NCBI GenBank assembly: GCA_963722375.1
Contig: CAVRLI010000011.1
Location: forward strand, 1-24,000
Reading direction: 5' to 3'
Source of the DNA: an uncultured Actinomycetota bacterium
Lineage (GTDB): Bacteria; Actinomycetota; Actinomycetes; Sporichthyales; Sporichthyaceae
DNA: 24,000 nucleotides
In this document: piece after piece, positions 1,472-13,658 of the stretch
How positions within the stretch are numbered: the stretch's first letter is position 1
How the letters are laid out: each line of letters starts with the position of its first letter
Program-made: the position numbers and the translations under genes
The notes under the pieces: generated by a model
Seen by the model: only the letters and a program-made list of their open reading frames with translations
What the model was told of the DNA's origin: nothing
Database searches by the model: none

Positions 1472-2584
1472 CGACGACGCGAGACGTGACGGTGCACCAC
1501 AACGGGCCGTCGTTCGCCGAGAGCGAGGTCATCGAGCGGATCGAGTCCTTCCGCAAGCGACGGCCGCGGCTGCTCGACGAGATCGTCACGATGTCGCACG
1601 GCGCCGGCGGCAAGTCCTCGGCCGCGCTCGTGGACGCGGTGTTCGTCGAGGGCTTCCGCAACGAGGCCCTCGAGCAGCTCGGGGACGGCGCGGTGCTCAC
1701 GCTGCCCAGCGGCGAGCGGCTCGCCTTCTCCACCGACTCCTTCGTCGTCCAGCCGTCTGCGCTTCCCCGGCGGCTCGATCGGCCACCTCGCGGTGCACGG
1801 GACCGTGAACGATCTGGCGATGGCGGGCGCGCGGCCGTCCTGGTTGTCCGCGGCCTTCGTGCTGGAGGAGGGCTTCCGCATCTCCGAGTTGCAGGAGATC
1901 GTCGCCGACATGGCGGCGGCGGCCCTGGCCGCCGGGGTGCAGATCGTCACCGGGGACACCAAGGTCGTCCCGACCGGTGCGGCCGACGGGCTGTTCATCA
2001 CCACCGCCGGCGTCGGCGTGATCCCGGCCGGCCGCCGGCTCGCGGCCGACCGCGTGCAGGCCGGCGACAAGGTCGTCATGTCGGGCTTCATCGGCGATCA
2101 CGGCATGGCCGTGATGCTGGCGCGGGAGGACCTCGAGCTGGAGGCGGACATCTCCTCCGACACCGCCGCGGTCAGCGATCTGGTCGAGACGATGCTGGCC
2201 GCCGCGCCGTCGACCCGCTGGATGCGCGACCCGACGCGCGGCGGGGTCGGCACGGTCTGCAACGAGCTGGCCCAGGTCACCGGGCTCGGCATCGTGCTCG
2301 ACGAGCGCGTGCTGCCGGTGCGCCCGGCCGTGCACGGCGCCTGCGAGATGCTCGGCATCGACCCGCTCTACGTCGCGAACGAGGGCAAGTTCCTCGCGGT
2401 GCTCGACCCCGCCGAGACCGACGCCGCGCTCGCGGCGATGCGGGCGCATCCCCTCGGCGGCGACGCCGTCGTGATCGGCGAGGTCACCGACAAGATCGGC
2501 GCCACCGTCGCCCTGCGCACGCAGTTCGGCGGCACCCGCATCGTCGACATGCTCGTCGGCGACCCGCTGCCGAGAATCTGTTAG
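1468..2584 (+). pseudogene. hypE: Hydrogenase maturation protein HypE (carbamoyl dehydratase), frameshifted as sequenced at about 1756
   Basis: ATG 1468 overlaps the upstream stop (ATGA). It reads ...TMSHGAGGKSSAALV...FSTDSFVVQP in frame 1, then PGGSIGHLAVHGTVNDLAMAGARP... to the C-terminal PRIC* in frame 2. Deleting the T at 1756 restores VVQPLRFPGGSIG. Confidence 0.9.
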
Positions 2585-2594
2585 GAGCAGGCGT

Positions 2595-2867
2595 ATGTGT
2601 CTGGGAATCCCGGGCCGGATCGTCGAGATCACCGACGCCGAGAACTATCTGGCCAAGGTCGAGGTCAACGGCGTGCGGCGGATCATCAGCGTCAAGCTGC
2701 TGGAGAAGGAGATGCCGGCGCCTGACGGCTGGGTGCTGGTCCACGTCGGGTTCGCGATGGCGAACATCGACGAGGAGGAGGCGCGCCTGACGCTGGAGGC
2801 GATGGAGAAGCTCGGCGAGGCCTACCGCGACGAGATAGCCGCCTTCGACAGCACCTCGATCCTGTAG
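2595..2867 (+). CDS. hypC: Hydrogenase assembly chaperone HypC/HupF
   Basis: 90 aa starting MCLGIPGRIVEI, with the ...WVLVHVGFAM motif typical of HypC. Confidence 0.92.
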   Translation: MCLGIPGRIVEITDAENYLAKVEVNGVRRIISVKLLEKEMPAPDGWVLVHVGFAMANIDEEEARLTLEAMEKLGEAYRDEIAAFDSTSIL

Positions 2868-2885
2868 ACCCCGGAAGGACATCTC

Positions 2886-4031
2886 ATGCGTTTCGTCGAT
2901 GAGTTCCGCGACCCGGCGGCGGCGCGGCTGTTGCTGGCCGCGATCGAGGACATGGCCGCGCCCGGTGCACCGGACGCCGAGCACTTCAAGTTCATGGAGG
3001 TGTGCGGCGGGCACACGCACACCATCTACCGGCACGGCCTCGAGCACGTGCTGCCGGACAACGTGGAGCTGGTGCACGGCCCGGGCTGTCCGGTCTGCGT
3101 GATCCCGATGGGCCGGGTCGACGACGCGATGTGGCTCGCCGAACAGCCGGACGTCATCTTCACCTCGTTCGGCGACATGATGCGCGTGCCCGGTTCGAAG
3201 GGCAGCCTGCTCGAGGCCAAGGCGCGCGGCGCCGACGTCCGCTTCGTCTACTCCCCGCTCGATGCGCTGAAGCTCGCCGTCGACAACCCGACGAAGAAGG
3301 TCGTGTTCTTCGCGGTCGGGTTCGAGACCACGGCGCCGTCCACGGCCGTCACCTTGATCCGGGCCCGTGAGCTCGGGGTGAGCAACTTCAGCGTGTTCTC
3401 CAACCACGTCACGATCGTGCCGCCGCTCAAGGCGATCCTGGACTCCCCCGACATGCGCCTGTCCGGGTTCCTCGGTCCCGGCCACGTCTCGACCGTGGTC
3501 GGCAACCGGCCCTACCGCTTCGTGCCCGAGGTCTACGGCAAGCCGATCGTGGTGGCGGGCTTCGAACCGCTGGACATCCTCGCCTCGGTCGCCATGCTGC
3601 TCCGGCAGATCCGCGAGGGCCGCTGCGAGGTGGAGAACCAGTACGGGCGCGTCGTCCGCGAGGAGGGCAACCCGGCCGCGCTCAATCTGATGGCCCAGGT
3701 CTTCGAGCTGCGCCCGCACTTCGAGTGGCGTGGCCTCGGCTTCATCTCCCAGAGCGGGTTGCGCCTCAACGCCGACTTCGCGGCGTGGGACACCGAGCGG
3801 CTCTACGACATGCCCGGCATCCGCGTCGCCGACCCGAAGGCCTGCCAGTGCGGCGAGGTGCTCAAGGGCGTGCTCAAACCGTGGGAGTGCAAGGTGTTCG
3901 GCACCGCGTGCACCCCGGAGACGCCGATCGGCACCTGCATGGTCTCGCCCGAAGGTGCCTGCGCGGCCTACTACAACTTCGGCCGGATGCACCGCGACGC
4001 CGCCCAGTTGGTGGGGCAGAGCGGCGGATGA
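2886..4031 (+). CDS. hypD: Hydrogenase maturation Fe-S protein HypD
   Basis: 381 aa. It carries the MEVCGGHTH and GPGCPVCV motifs and a C-terminal Cys-rich region (CQCGEVLKG...CKVFGTACTPETPIGTCMVSPEGAC). Confidence 0.93.
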   Translation: MRFVDEFRDPAAARLLLAAIEDMAAPGAPDAEHFKFMEVCGGHTHTIYRHGLEHVLPDNVELVHGPGCPVCVIPMGRVDDAMWLAEQPDVIFTSFGDMMRVPGSKGSLLEAKARGADVRFVYSPLDALKLAVDNPTKKVVFFAVGFETTAPSTAVTLIRARELGVSNFSVFSNHVTIVPPLKAILDSPDMRLSGFLGPGHVSTVVGNRPYRFVPEVYGKPIVVAGFEPLDILASVAMLLRQIREGRCEVENQYGRVVREEGNPAALNLMAQVFELRPHFEWRGLGFISQSGLRLNADFAAWDTERLYDMPGIRVADPKACQCGEVLKGVLKPWECKVFGTACTPETPIGTCMVSPEGACAAYYNFGRMHRDAAQLVGQSGG

Positions 4032-10501: not shown

Positions 10502-12886
10502 TTACAGCCGGGCGGCGACAGCGAGTTGGCCCAGGGCCAGCCCGGCGTCGCTGGGGGGAACAGTGCGATGGCGCAGCACGGTGAACCCGGCCACGGCCAG
10601 GCGTTCCACGCACAGCGCAGTGAGCAGCGCGTTGAGGAACACCCCGCCCGACAGGGCGACGGTGGCCGGACCGCCACGAGCCCGCAGCAGCTCCGCGACG
10701 GTGACGACGAGATCAGCCACCGCGAGATGGAATCGCGCGGACACGACGGCCGGGTCGACACCGGCCAGGACATCGGCCGCCGCCGCGGCGAGCACCGGCG
10801 CGGGGTCGAGCTGGAGCGGACCGTCCACGCTGTCGGTGACGGCGAACGCGTAGCCCGGGCCGCACGACGAAAGCGCGCCGCGGGCCAGGCCCTCGAAGCG
10901 CATCGCGGCCTCGGCCTCGTACGCGATGCGGTGGCAGACGCCGGCCAAGGAGGACACCGCGTCGAAGAGCCGGCCCATGCTCGAGGTGGGCACGCTGGCC
11001 AGGCCGGTCTCCAACTGGCGGGACAGCACCGAGCGCTCGGCCGGCGTGGTGGCAGCGACGCTCGGCAGCTCGGGGTCCCACCCCAGTCCCGCGGTGCGCA
11101 GGTGCGAGAGCGCCATGCGGCACGGGTTGCGCACCCCGGCATCCCCACCCGGCAAGGGCGTGTAGCGCAGATGCGCGGCGCGGGTGAAGCCGTCGTAGTC
11201 CGCGACCAACACCTCCCCGCCCCAGACCGCGCCGTCCTCGCCGTAGCCGGTGCCGTCGAAGGCGAATCCGAGCACGGGGTCGTTGCCCTCGTGCCCGGCG
11301 TCAGCCATCGCGGAAGCGATGTGCGCGTGGTGGTGCTGCACGTGGGCGAGCGGGAGACCACCCGCGTTGCGCGCGGCCCAGTCGGCGCTGCGGTACCCCG
11401 GGTGCCGGTCCGCGATCAGCAGTTGCGGCACCACACCGGTGAGCCGGGACAGCTGGGCGGTGGCGCCGTCGAAGGCGCGCAGGGTGGCGAGGTCGTCCAT
11501 GTCACCGACGTGCGCGGACATCCAGGCGTAGCCGCCGTCGCCGACGCAGAACGTGTTCTTGAGGTCCCCGCCGACCGCGAGGGCGGGCCGGAGTGCGAAC
11601 GGCAGCGCGACCGGCAGCGGGGCGTAGCCGCGGGAGCGGCGCACCGGCAGCTGCGCCCCGGCCGCGATCCGCACCACCGAGTCGTCGCACGGCACCGCGA
11701 TCGGGCGGTCGTGCGAGAGCCACGCGTCGGCCAGGCCGGCCAGCCGCTCCCGGGCCTCGGCGTCGTCGGTGACGATCGGCTCTCCGGCGAGGTTGCCGCT
11801 GGTCATCACCAGCGCCACGGGCCCGGGCGGGTCCCCGGGCAACCCGAACAGCAGCCGGTGCACGGGCGTGTAGGGCAGGAAGAGGCCGAGGTCGGGGGTG
11901 TCCGGGGCTACGCCCGGCGCGAGCCACGACCCTGTGGATAAACCTCGATTAGGGGTGACACCCCTTCTTGAGGTTTTTCCACAGCGGCGGGAGGCGAGGA
12001 CGACGGGCCGACGGGGGTCGGTGAGCAGGTCGCGCTCGGCGCCGGAGAGGTCGGCGAGCGCCTCGGCGGTGGTCAGGTCCGCGACCATCACGGCGAACGG
12101 CTTGTCGCCGCGGTCCTTGCGCTTGCGCAGGGTCTCCACGGCGATCGGGTGGGAGGCGTCGCAGGCCAGGTGGTAGCCGCCGAGACCCTTGACCGCGAGG
12201 ATTCCGCCGTCGGCCAGCAACTCTCGGGCCACGGCCATCGCGACGTCGTCGTGGCAGTCCGGCAGTCCGGGCTGATGCAGCGTCAGACGCGGGCCGCAGT
12301 CGCGGCAGGCGACGGTCTGGGCGTGGAAACGGCGGTCGGCCGGATCGGCGTACTCCGCGGCGCAGACGCTGCACAGCGGCAGGTCGGCCATGGTGGTGGC
12401 CGGACGGTCGTAGGGCAGGTCGAGAACGACGGTGAACCGCGGCCCGCAGTTTGTGCAACTGATGAAGGCGTGCCGGTAGCGGCGGTCCGCCGGATCGGCC
12501 AGTTCGGCCAGGCAGTCCGCGCAGGTCGCCACGTCCGGTGAGACCAGGGTGCGACCAGTTCCGCCCTGGGAATCGGCGATGGTGAAGTCGGTGCCGCCGC
12601 GGCAGGGCAACGCCTCGGCGGTTACCGACTCGACGCGTGCGAGTGGCGGCGCGTCGGTGCGCACCCGGGTCGCGAACGCATTGACCGCGGCCGGCGCACC
12701 CTCGACCTCGATCACCACCCCGTCGGGTGTGTTCGCCACCGCCCCGGACAACGCGAGCTCGCGGGCCAGCGCGTAGACGAAAGGCCGGAAGCCGACCCCC
12801 TGCACGACTCCGCGCACGACGACGCGCCGCCGGTGGCGGTCTCCCTGTGAAGAACTGCCGGCGGCGCGCTCGCGCGGCGGGGTCAA
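10502..12886 (-). CDS. hypF: Carbamoyltransferase HypF
   Basis: The acylphosphatase domain reads VVVRGVVQGVGFRPFV. There are two zinc-finger pairs (CADCLAEL...CTNCGPRFT and CSVCAAEY...CRDCGPR). Also present are the YrdC-like AVKGLGGYHLACDA and the Kae1-like C-terminus. The proposed TTG start (12884-12886) overlaps the stop of the upstream 63-aa ORF (TTGA); the start is less certain than the gene identity. The gene contains the in-frame palindromic insert at 11932-11984. Confidence 0.88.
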   Translation of the reverse strand: MTPPRERAAGSSSQGDRHRRRVVVRGVVQGVGFRPFVYALARELALSGAVANTPDGVVIEVEGAPAAVNAFATRVRTDAPPLARVESVTAEALPCRGGTDFTIADSQGGTGRTLVSPDVATCADCLAELADPADRRYRHAFISCTNCGPRFTVVLDLPYDRPATTMADLPLCSVCAAEYADPADRRFHAQTVACRDCGPRLTLHQPGLPDCHDDVAMAVARELLADGGILAVKGLGGYHLACDASHPIAVETLRKRKDRGDKPFAVMVADLTTAEALADLSGAERDLLTDPRRPVVLASRRCGKTSRRGVTPNRGLSTGSWLAPGVAPDTPDLGLFLPYTPVHRLLFGLPGDPPGPVALVMTSGNLAGEPIVTDDAEARERLAGLADAWLSHDRPIAVPCDDSVVRIAAGAQLPVRRSRGYAPLPVALPFALRPALAVGGDLKNTFCVGDGGYAWMSAHVGDMDDLATLRAFDGATAQLSRLTGVVPQLLIADRHPGYRSADWAARNAGGLPLAHVQHHHAHIASAMADAGHEGNDPVLGFAFDGTGYGEDGAVWGGEVLVADYDGFTRAAHLRYTPLPGGDAGVRNPCRMALSHLRTAGLGWDPELPSVAATTPAERSVLSRQLETGLASVPTSSMGRLFDAVSSLAGVCHRIAYEAEAAMRFEGLARGALSSCGPGYAFAVTDSVDGPLQLDPAPVLAAAAADVLAGVDPAVVSARFHLAVADLVVTVAELLRARGGPATVALSGGVFLNALLTALCVERLAVAGFTVLRHRTVPPSDAGLALGQLAVAARL
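11932..11984. repeat. 53-bp perfect nested palindrome embedded in frame in hypF (candidate miniature palindromic insertion)
   Basis: CTGTGGA t AAACCTC gatta GGGGTG a CACCCC ttctt GAGGTTT t TCCACAG. It has three fully complementary arm pairs (7+7+6 bp) and 26 of 53 bases are G/C. It is translated on the minus strand as CGKTSRRGVTPNRGLSTG using mostly A/T-ending codons. Confidence 0.8.
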
Positions 12887-13183: not shown

Positions 13184-13658
13184 GTGGACACCTCCGTCAT
13201 TTCTCTCGCCAGCATTTCTTCGATCAACGCGACCGCAGCCGGAACCGCGGCCTCCACTTCGGGGCTCAGGCCCAGTCCTTCCTCCACGACCTTCGGCTCG
13301 CACGCGACCACCAGGACGCGTTCCACGCTCCCGCCGAGCGAACTGAGCATCCGCAGCACGGAGACCGGCTCCATGCCGTGCGCATCCACCGGCGGCGAGG
13401 TGCCCGGGGCGGCGGGATCTCGGCCGGGTCGACCTCGAGCAGGCTGACCGTGCCCGGCGCCTTACCGTGCGGCGCCGCGTCGACGAACACCAGGGTGCCG
13501 ACGCCGTCGAGCAGCCGGTAGGCCAGGTGCACGCCGCGGATGCCGTAGTCCTCCACCTCGGCCCCGACGGGCACCGGGTATCCGCGCAGGCGCGCGAGCA
13601 CCTCGGGGCCGAACCCGTCGTCGGAGAGGAAGATGTTGCCGATCCCCGCCACCAGCAA
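13180..13658 (-). pseudogene. [NiFe]-hydrogenase maturation endopeptidase (HupD/HyaD family), frameshifted as sequenced near 13406-13412
   Basis: LLVAGIGNIFLSDDGFGPEV...GVHLAYRLLDG...VFVDAAPHGKAPGTVSLLEVDPAEIPPP is in one frame. PGTSPPVDAHGMEPVSVLRML...VVACEP... is in another, implying 1 nt missing in the C/G run. The start is either TTG 13658 or ATG 13665; the latter is ATGA-coupled to the upstream stop but would need one further indel. Confidence 0.8.

Follow-up and report, generated by a model that had tools for sequence, protein, structure and literature searches.

The locus and its palindrome

We analysed 24,000 nucleotides (nt) of DNA from an uncultured Actinomycetota bacterium of the Sporichthyaceae (assembly GCA_963722375.1, contig CAVRLI010000011.1, positions 1 to 24,000, forward strand); this whole stretch is hereafter called the window. 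The window is an actinobacterial [NiFe]-hydrogenase locus, and its minus-strand hypF gene contains, in frame, a complete nested palindrome of 53 base pairs (bp), here called the element, which is probably a small dispersed hairpin-forming repeat. The features of hypF and of the element are as follows, with the strand given where one applies.

10505-12817, minus strand: hypF coding sequence of 771 amino acids (aa), with a product identical to database protein P0001; its stop codon is at 10502-10504
11930-11983, minus strand: 18 codons for the extra peptide CGKTSRRGVTPNRGLSTG, HypF residues 279-296, placed by the reading frame and by alignment with 3VTH of the Protein Data Bank (PDB)
11932-11984: the complete 53-bp nested palindrome, read from the sequence and returned identically by a repeat finder
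11933-11941, minus strand: terminal DnaA-box consensus TTATCCACA, part of the conserved end of 12-13 nt, (C)CTGTGGATAAAC
11940-11946: inner arm AAACCTC, partner of 11970-11976
11952-11964: central hairpin GGGGTG-a-CACCCC, which contains GGGGTGAC and with it a fit to GGGGWSAS
11970-11976: inner arm GAGGTTT, partner of 11940-11946
11975-11983, plus strand: second terminal DnaA-box variant TTTTCCACA, read on the hypF coding strand as TGT GGA AAA

On the plus strand the element reads CTGTGGA-t-AAACCTC-gatta-GGGGTG-a-CACCCC-ttctt-GAGGTTT-t-TCCACAG, and its terminal inverted repeats are CTGTGGATAAAC and GTTTTTCCACAG. An initial annotation, made by a model from the sequence alone, had described three perfect nested arm pairs of 7, 7 and 6 bp, and both the sequence and the repeat finder agree with it: complementarity is perfect, and all 20 of the 20 stem pairs are formed in the window copy. 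Our recount also gives the same composition, 26 G/C in 53 bases, in surroundings that are much richer (G+C fraction 0.703 for the whole window and 0.70-0.79 in nearby 200-nt windows). Folding, proposed there as a check, gives a strongly non-random structure both as RNA (-37.8 kcal/mol, z = -6.45) and as single-stranded DNA (ssDNA; -18.0 and -17.2 kcal/mol for the two strands, z ~ -7.1), with equal stability reached in 0/200 shuffles in either case. No second copy of the element with three or fewer mismatches was found in the 24-kb window, nor in 100 shuffles of it. An Rfam scan of positions 11500-12500, with E values up to 1, returned no match, and a scan of both strands found no promoter-like or terminator-like site.

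Insertion in the HypF linker

The host gene is a complete HypF carbamoyltransferase gene. Its open reading frame (ORF) is intact and encodes an acylphosphatase, two zinc-finger, a YrdC-like and a Kae1-like domain (precomputed Pfam domains Acylphosphatase, zf-HYPF, Sua5_yciO_yrdC, HypF_C and HypF_C_2), the PDB matches are 3VTH, 4G9I and 3TSP, and the catalytic columns that are invariant over 52 homologues are all present. Among named HypF proteins, those of Sporichthyaceae metagenome-assembled genomes (MAGs) are the closest, with about 74% identity.

The minus-strand frame runs through the element without a stop, and the product, ...PVVLASRR-CGKTSRRGVTPNRGLSTG-SWLAPGVAP..., is identical to the translation given at the outset. 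The insert codons are TGT GGA AAA ACC TCA AGA AGG GGT GTC ACC CCT AAT CGA GGT TTA TCC ACA GGG; those quoted in the initial annotation are present, as a selection of the 18. Because 53 is not a multiple of three, that annotation had reasoned that extra bases must be involved, and indeed 54 nt (11930-11983) encode the extra residues. The element is foreign to the gene in composition and in codons, which are A+T-rich in a window of 70% G+C.

The linker was said to be short in other HypF proteins, which the homologues bear out: the segment from RP(V/I)V to (L/M)xYTP has 34-36 residues in about 100 of the 120 best HypF homologues, against 50 in the window HypF. In the alignment of orthologues that had been suggested, proteins P0004 (locus L003) and P0006 (locus L141, an outgroup) are without the insert, and HMMER alignment to the 3VTH HypF places a 17-residue gap precisely at CGKTSRRGVTPNRGLST. 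By these comparisons, the 53-bp element is an insertion into the HypF linker. An AlphaFold2 model built on a 52-sequence alignment has a mean pLDDT (predicted local distance difference test score) of 82.7, with residues 281-295 as coil of pLDDT below 50 flanked by well-predicted domains. The extra 18 residues are therefore modelled as a disordered loop, and such a loop in a linker suggests that HypF tolerates the insert. The intact ORF, the full set of invariant catalytic columns and a divergence from L002 that is lower for amino acids (11.5%) than for fourfold sites (30.6%) speak for tolerance too.

History of the hypF copy

The DNA of the five closest HypF genes and an outgroup was aligned across the insert site. 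The states at this site, with the identity of each HypF to that of the window, are listed here.

L002 (87%), 585-637: intact 53-nt palindrome with the same ends, arms AAACGACC/GGTCGTTT and centre GGCGTG/CACGCC
L001 (84%), 10834-10886: decayed, G+C-enriched copy GGTGGAAAAGCC...GGGTTGTCCACAG
L003, protein P0004 (83%): no insert (ASRGSRGS)
L004 (81%): centre alone remains, GGGCGTGACACGCCC
L141, protein P0006, outgroup (77%): no insert

The protein tree and the nucleotide distances give the order (((window, L002), L003), L001), L004. Taken with the states at the site, this topology is most economically explained by a single insertion long ago that later decayed or was lost; the hypF insertion is thus old and inherited, not recent. 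The trimming of native linker residues varies from lineage to lineage (ASRR..SW, none, AARR..PEST). The initial annotation held that orthologues with the same residues in ordinary G+C-rich codons would speak against an insertion; L001 comes nearest to that case, and it is a recognisably decayed, G+C-enriched copy, which supports the insertion.

The two ends differ in a manner that can be related to the reading frame. Outside hypF every copy has CTGTGGATAAAC as its end, and the hypF copies have it on one side; read along the coding strand of hypF, this sequence would give TGT GGA TAA, a stop (canonical ATAAAC). The actual coding-strand end is TGT GGA AAA in the window, GGT GGA AAA in L001 and TGT GGT AAA in L002, so that the stop-removing AAA is common to all three. 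AAA in place of TAA produces the t/t (A/A) mismatch, the sole one of the outer stem, which is probably the scar of keeping the ORF open.

Longer linkers also occur in proteins P0007 and P0009, and neither is recognisable as a copy of the element. That of P0009 (L140, 10001-12394) is different (GRWTGFAGPDAQAGAE), and its DNA forms an 11-bp G+C hairpin with GGTGGACAGGG; this hairpin may be a very old remnant or unrelated, the likeness being too weak to call.

Maintenance of the palindrome

Between the window and L002 the HypF proteins diverge at 11.5% of amino acids and the hypF genes at 30.6% of fourfold sites, and 14 of the 53 positions of the element differ. Only one of the 24 terminal positions is among these (p ~ 0.002 by our own binomial estimate). 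Three stem pairs have changed on both sides (C-G to G-C, T-A to A-T and G-C to C-G), and the remaining differences are confined to the internal loops. In the comparison of stem partners 87.5% of cells are paired, versus 41-52% when the partner is slid, and the covariation score of 0.158, versus 0.053 in shuffles, was reached by 3/500 of them. For the ssDNA fold, z is ~ -7 in L002 as in the window, and -3.4 in L001.

RNA stems usually change through G-U intermediates, and pair flips of the kind seen here do not follow that path. Moreover, the intact palindromes of the two sister lineages belong to two subfamilies, each of which matches a copy at another locus (see below). Simple drift would not explain intact, subfamily-specific palindromes. 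The flips and the matching variants together favour refreshment, or correction templated by the other arm, over slow compensatory evolution of a selected RNA; most likely the hypF copy was renewed from active family members, through conversion or a fresh insertion, or one of its arms served as template for correcting the other.

Copies at other loci

Metagenome contigs were scanned with a strict pattern of one end and the centre; the L002 contig is absent from the collection scanned. Seven loci matched, and three of them (L123, L124 and L127) are true relatives, with nhmmer E values of 1.8e-8 to 3.2e-7. The half-unit at L123, CTGTGGATAAACCTCGATAGGGGGTGACACCCCC, is identical to the left half of the window element at 33/34 nt. 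Its neighbours are a convergent murB gene, which encodes a Nocardioides-like MurB, and an adenosine deaminase gene with an ORF that terminates within the copy; the same intergenic site of murB and add in four relatives (L132-L135) is without the element, which makes L123 an insertion polymorphism. L124 has arms of the L002 type, also between convergent genes, and its hairpin is flanked by AAAA and TTTT. In L127 (3855-3887, minus strand) the half-unit is in frame (PVDKRPVGVTRLS) in the variable surface loop of a gene resembling that of benzoate-CoA ligase, a loop that exceeds its counterpart in PDB 2V7B by 4-5 residues.

The terminal 12-mer of the window element is present in L002, L123, L124 and L127, and the centre variant GGCGTG-a-CACGCC in L001, L002, L004, L124 and L127. 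Beyond the 12-nt box, in ungapped comparison, L123 agrees with the window at 19/21 positions and L124 with L002 at 18-19/21, as against 12-14/21 across groups. There are thus two subfamilies, one of the window halves and L123, the other of the L002 halves, L124 and L127. The spacing from box to hairpin is constant at 8-9 nt in all copies. The search for copies elsewhere that the initial annotation proposed came out in its favour: half-elements stand outside hypF in three metagenome contigs. About 170 kb of related DNA holds no further copy. As far as sampled, the family is dispersed but apparently rare.

The other four loci are not copies. L126 is a DnaA-box cluster, and L125, L128 and L129 represent a conserved region upstream of an ORF of 309 aa, which we take, without a family search, to be prephenate dehydratase. 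A BLAST search of plasmids and phages with the element gave no real match, and scans of viral contigs for it found nothing relevant. A 20-nt identity with the left end of the window element, CCCTGTGGATAAACCTCGAT, occurs between genes in Mycobacterium abscessus prophages (L130 2501-2520, Mycobacterium phage prophiGD91-2, MW584188.1 60295-60314; L131 2501-2518; L137 4944-4961); with E = 0.5 and no hairpin after it, it is probably due to chance. A peptide search for in-frame copies in concatenated open-frame translations gave 28 candidates, of which none scored. As a separate observation, the spacer between murB and the adenosine deaminase gene of L134 (~10630-10750), the site that holds the hairpin unit in L123, is filled by three tandem units of ~32 nt (CACCACCGACCCGGCGCATCCGCAGCCCGGAA).

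DnaA-box ends

The ends of the element, TTATCCACA at 11933-11941 (minus) and TTTTCCACA at 11975-11983 (plus), match TT[A/T]TNCACA, the high-affinity DnaA-box consensus as quoted in PMC6006769. They are the only TTDTCCACA sites in the 24-kb window, where 0.10 would be expected, and two or more such sites were seen in 0/100 shuffles. A scan of 185,579 species genomes was made for the two ends only, and gives no estimate of copy number; among the matches listed, most are ordinary inverted DnaA-box pairs, for example in the dnaA-dnaN spacer of Stenotrophomonas (confirmed by Pfam), together with unrelated repeat families. Since a pattern of the ends alone returns real inverted DnaA-box pairs, the ends of the element appear indistinguishable from functional DnaA boxes. 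The hairpin with a DnaA box known as the M13 A-site loads DnaB in the ABC primosome (PMC6127211), and the ends of Tn5 contain a DnaA site (PMC3347997). Speculatively, the identity of the ends may reflect use of the host DnaA, or a DnaA-like helix-turn-helix domain.

The same scan led to several observations in other bacteria. In Stenotrophomonas spp. (L019 5988-6033; L006, L018, L022, L038, L042, L066 and L098) a 46-nt unit, CTGTGGATAAA-N24-TTTATCCACAG, occupies the dnaA-dnaN spacer, with conserved boxes and a variable interior that at times forms a hairpin. Isolated intergenic hairpins between inverted DnaA boxes occur in unrelated phyla (L069 6005-6055, L070 185-247, L077 7631-7676, L095 6190-6234 and L048 7740-7795); they are 79-98% self-complementary, have no other box within 600 nt, and share the architecture of the window element. 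The Chlamydiae MAG JABDCQ01 has at least two types of ~60-nt repeats, with at least 17 and at least 6 copies (loci L012, L014, L020, L023, L027, L031, L032, L039, L045, L062, L065, L068, L087, L088, L101, L111, L116, L120 and L122), and the Chitinophagaceae ES-bin-54 has multi-copy ~60-nt repeats with the same ends (L005, L008, L035, L090, L093 and L107). In both groups the inverted ends are CTGTGGT(A/T)AAAA...TTTT(A/T)ACCACAG and the interiors are non-palindromic; these ends were the scan pattern, and kinship with the element is unproven.

Comparison with known systems

In REPINs, conserved inverted ends enclose a spacer with compensatory changes, and singlets are remnants (PMC3116915). The element resembles these and repetitive extragenic palindromic (REP) sequences in having two conserved inverted regions, a less conserved spacer that pairs through compensatory changes, a long hairpin predicted in ssDNA or mRNA, solitary half-units that look like remnants, copies between convergent genes (L123, L124) and no target-site duplication. 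In contrast, the 53-mer is without GTAG, CTAC, CGTC and GACG (CGTC stands beside the hairpin in L127 alone), its conserved regions are the outermost ends sharing one central hairpin instead of two self-contained REP hairpins, no RAYT gene was seen in the loci examined, and a copy number in the tens to hundreds is not in evidence in the DNA sampled. Actinomycetota are not among the phyla listed as hosts of GTAG and CGTC REPs (PMC3733652). With the tag missing, the element is not a member of the GTAG or CGTC REP superfamilies.

Intragenic REP dimers encode 20-30 residues (PMC3733652), and like these and the Rickettsia palindromic elements (RPEs) the window element is a palindromic repeat in the gene of a known protein, read without a stop as about 20 residues, between domains of a modular protein (PMC3733652). 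The dimers belong to the GTAG or CGTC superfamilies and have different ends. The analogy with RPEs drawn in the initial annotation stands for the in-frame behaviour; it does not extend to size and host, as RPEs are 100-150 bp long and found in Rickettsia, whereas the element is 53 bp long, has other ends, is actinobacterial and has been inherited through diverged lineages.

Genes of TIRYT transposases, which are RAYT-like, are flanked by inverted repeats sharing GGGGWSAS (PMC3733652), and many of the proteins, those of subclass 2.1, carry helix-turn-helix domains like Bac_DnaA_C (PMC6006769). These "TIRtrons" are rare or moderate inverted-repeat families, some self-complementary and some dimers, and GGGGTGAC of the window element fits their GGGGWSAS; a DnaA_C-like domain in their proteins and DnaA boxes in the element are a resemblance only. 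The differences are that no TIRYT gene was found near any copy and that the motif lies in the middle of this element rather than demonstrably at an end. It is present as GGGGTGAC in the window and L123, and with one mismatch, as GGCGTGAC, in L001, L002, L004, L124 and L127; we estimate that a match would turn up by chance somewhere in 53 nt, both strands counted, with a probability of ~0.01.

Miniature inverted-repeat transposable elements (MITEs) are likewise short and non-coding, exceed their host in A+T, are bounded by terminal inverted repeats and show a polymorphism of presence and absence such as that of L123 versus L132-L135. They differ by their target-site duplications, 53 bp is the extreme low end of their sizes, and covariation of inner arms is not expected where a DDE transposase reads duplex ends. 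With no target-site duplication to be seen, the element falls short of a MITE. A DnaA box in a hairpin stem or at a transposon end is also found in the A-site of the ABC primosome and in the ends of Tn5/IS50 (PMC6127211, PMC3347997); those systems, of E. coli, plasmids or phages, have biochemical proof, and the element is known from its sequence motif alone. We file it as a new case of a small palindromic dispersed repeat able to sit in frame.

Interpretation and alternatives

We regard the 53-bp palindrome as probably one copy of a small repeat that is dispersed in Actinomycetota, non-coding and able to form a hairpin; it resembles a REP doublet (REPIN) or a minimal MITE and is tolerated in frame in hypF. 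The initial annotation had proposed a MITE/REP-like insertion tolerated in frame, and the linker lengths, the copies elsewhere and the folding support it. The unit would consist of two inverted conserved ends of 12-13 nt, (C)CTGTGGATAAAC, with less conserved complementary inner arms and a centre GG(G/C)GTG-a-CAC(C/G)CC. The comparisons place its arrival in the ancestor of a small clade, within the short linker at the HypF surface that joins the YrdC-like to the Kae1-like part, where readthrough adds 18 disordered residues that the enzyme presumably tolerates and AAA instead of TAA at the coding-strand end would keep hypF open. Half-units at three unrelated actinobacterial loci would represent mobility, partly shown, with L123 as the insertion polymorphism. 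Movement would most likely occur as an ssDNA hairpin on which a tyrosine transposase of the HUH type (RAYT, TIRYT or IS200 kind) acts, a route that fits the lack of target-site duplication together with the conserved ends and the covarying stem.

Several results weigh against this interpretation. A scan for the HUH...Y motif over all loci examined gave one match, in an unrelated ORF, and no transposase; tblastn of E. coli RayT against plasmids gave no actinobacterial match. Copy number looks low, as about 170 kb of related DNA held no further copy and the strict metagenome scan only three true matches, and outside hypF there are half-units but no full palindrome. Neither a target-site duplication nor a common target was seen in the comparisons of filled and empty sites (window, L002, L003 and L141) or in the flanks of L123, L124 and L127, although a short duplication could have been lost, the insertion being old. 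Finally, the shared AAA favours a single ancestral insertion, and the subfamily pattern is then harder to explain without conversion.

If the repeat interpretation is right, Actinomycetota join the phyla with REP/REPIN-like hairpin repeats, HypF provides a clean natural case of an in-frame repeat carried for a long time by a multi-domain maturation enzyme, and the change from TAA to AAA is a visible fix that keeps the gene open. It would also explain the odd, low-complexity, A+T-rich loop of 18 residues in HypF, which annotators should then not call an error. The phenomenon itself is known; unusual are the DnaA-box ends and a perfect palindrome kept for so long inside a gene.

Alternatively, in line with the structured RNA or recombination site that the initial annotation had kept as alternatives, the palindrome could be a nucleic-acid structure selected in hypF, that is, a hairpin of the mRNA or of extruded DNA, or an inverted pair of DnaA boxes with a host function, kept by purifying selection. 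Possible roles include translation or stability of the hyp polycistron, blocking of antisense transcription, and binding or titration of DnaA. Such selection would fit palindromes that stay intact in two lineages 30.6% apart at fourfold sites while the loops diverge, the changes on both sides of three pairs, the strong fold z-scores and the retention of A+T-rich ends in a genome of 70% G+C. The right box of L001 has changed from TTATCCACA to TTGTCCACA, which we take to be the DnaA-box consensus of Streptomyces and mycobacteria; however, this change of TTA to TTG is synonymous and so uninformative on DnaA binding. The copy is decayed in L001, reduced to the centre in L004 and missing from L003, and more than 100 other HypF genes are without it, so the element appears dispensable; half-units stand at unrelated loci as well, and neither an Rfam match nor a promoter- or terminator-like site was found. 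We therefore consider a selected structure rather unlikely. A specific version of the repeat interpretation, to which we give little credence, is an undescribed class of actinobacterial mobile hairpins with genuine DnaA-box ends. Here the box, a 9-nt spacer and the GGGGWSAS hairpin would form an end read by a TIRYT-type HUH transposase through a helix-turn-helix like DnaA domain IV, or the hairpin would recruit the host DnaA and replicative helicase. The fit of GGGGTGAC to GGGGWSAS (PMC3733652), the Bac_DnaA_C-like domains of subclass 2.1 TIRYT (PMC6006769) and the constant spacing of 8-9 nt between box and hairpin agree with it, and canonical ends would pair in the stem into a duplex DnaA box, an arrangement also seen in the M13 A-site (PMC6127211), with the DnaA site in Tn5 ends as a further parallel (PMC3347997). 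These motif resemblances were noticed post hoc, though, L002, L124 and L127 carry GGCGTGAC with its one mismatch, no TIRYT gene was seen in any locus examined, and PMC6006769 reports that nothing resembling a DnaA box is present in the inverted repeats beside TIRYT genes. If true, the TIRYT route would explain a helix-turn-helix domain whose DNA target that 2018 survey did not identify, the route through DnaA and helicase (as with the A-site hairpin) would couple copying or self-correction of the element to replication, and either could explain a perfect palindrome kept in a gene across lineages ~30% apart at neutral sites. A connection of mobile hairpins with the replication initiator, or with a transposase domain resembling DnaA, would become directly testable.

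It is very improbable that the linker was expanded in place, for instance by template switching that perfected a quasi-palindrome, with the likeness of L123, L124 and L127 a coincidence or an effect of the search pattern. The length of the HypF linker does vary in other lineages (e.g. P0007, P0009, P0111 and P0117), and elsewhere only half-units occur, never the whole palindrome. Yet L123 shares with the window about 9 fully specified positions beyond the search pattern, at a chance of ~5e-7 per match by our own estimate, L124 likewise shares the L002-specific arm, and composition and codons are foreign to the gene. An artefact of assembly or library (adaptor, linker or chimeric join), which the initial annotation had kept as an alternative, is practically excluded: the independent JGI contig L002 has an intact, diverged palindrome at the same place. 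Although single-base indel errors do occur in the assembly of the window (three frameshifts versus L001), L002 (JGI), L001 (ENA) and L004 (JGI) are independent assemblies with homologous copies at the same codon positions and with lineage-specific substitutions, and the hypF frame is intact across the element. We know of no adaptor or linker that the element matches. FRT, loxP, mosaic-end scars of transposons, sequencing adaptors and mate-pair linkers were rejected on general knowledge, as their sequences differ and independent diverged copies exist; so was a tRNA-derived fragment of an attachment site, for which the loop is too short.

The hydrogenase locus

Besides hypF, the minus strand of the window encodes the small and large hydrogenase subunits, NifU-like, DUF5947 and DUF6084 proteins, an unknown protein of 456 aa, HycI, DUF6893, a 62-aa ORF and HypC. 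The plus-strand genes encode YceI, HypA and HypB. A second maturation set, HypE/HypC/HypD, lies on the plus strand at 1490-4028, apart from the hypF-hypC pair beside the structural genes, and includes a hypC paralogue at ~2595-2813. No transposase is found among the annotated genes of the 24-kb window.

Compared with the orthologues of L001, whose hydrogenase subunits are 96-97% identical, three genes of the window carry single-base frameshifts: an extra G in CTCGGAGGG at ~18552 in the NiFe large subunit, a T missing from GAGATTCCC at ~13416-13452 in HycI, and an extra base in CATCCACGATC at ~8931 in a SnoaL-like gene. All three look like assembly indel errors rather than pseudogenes.

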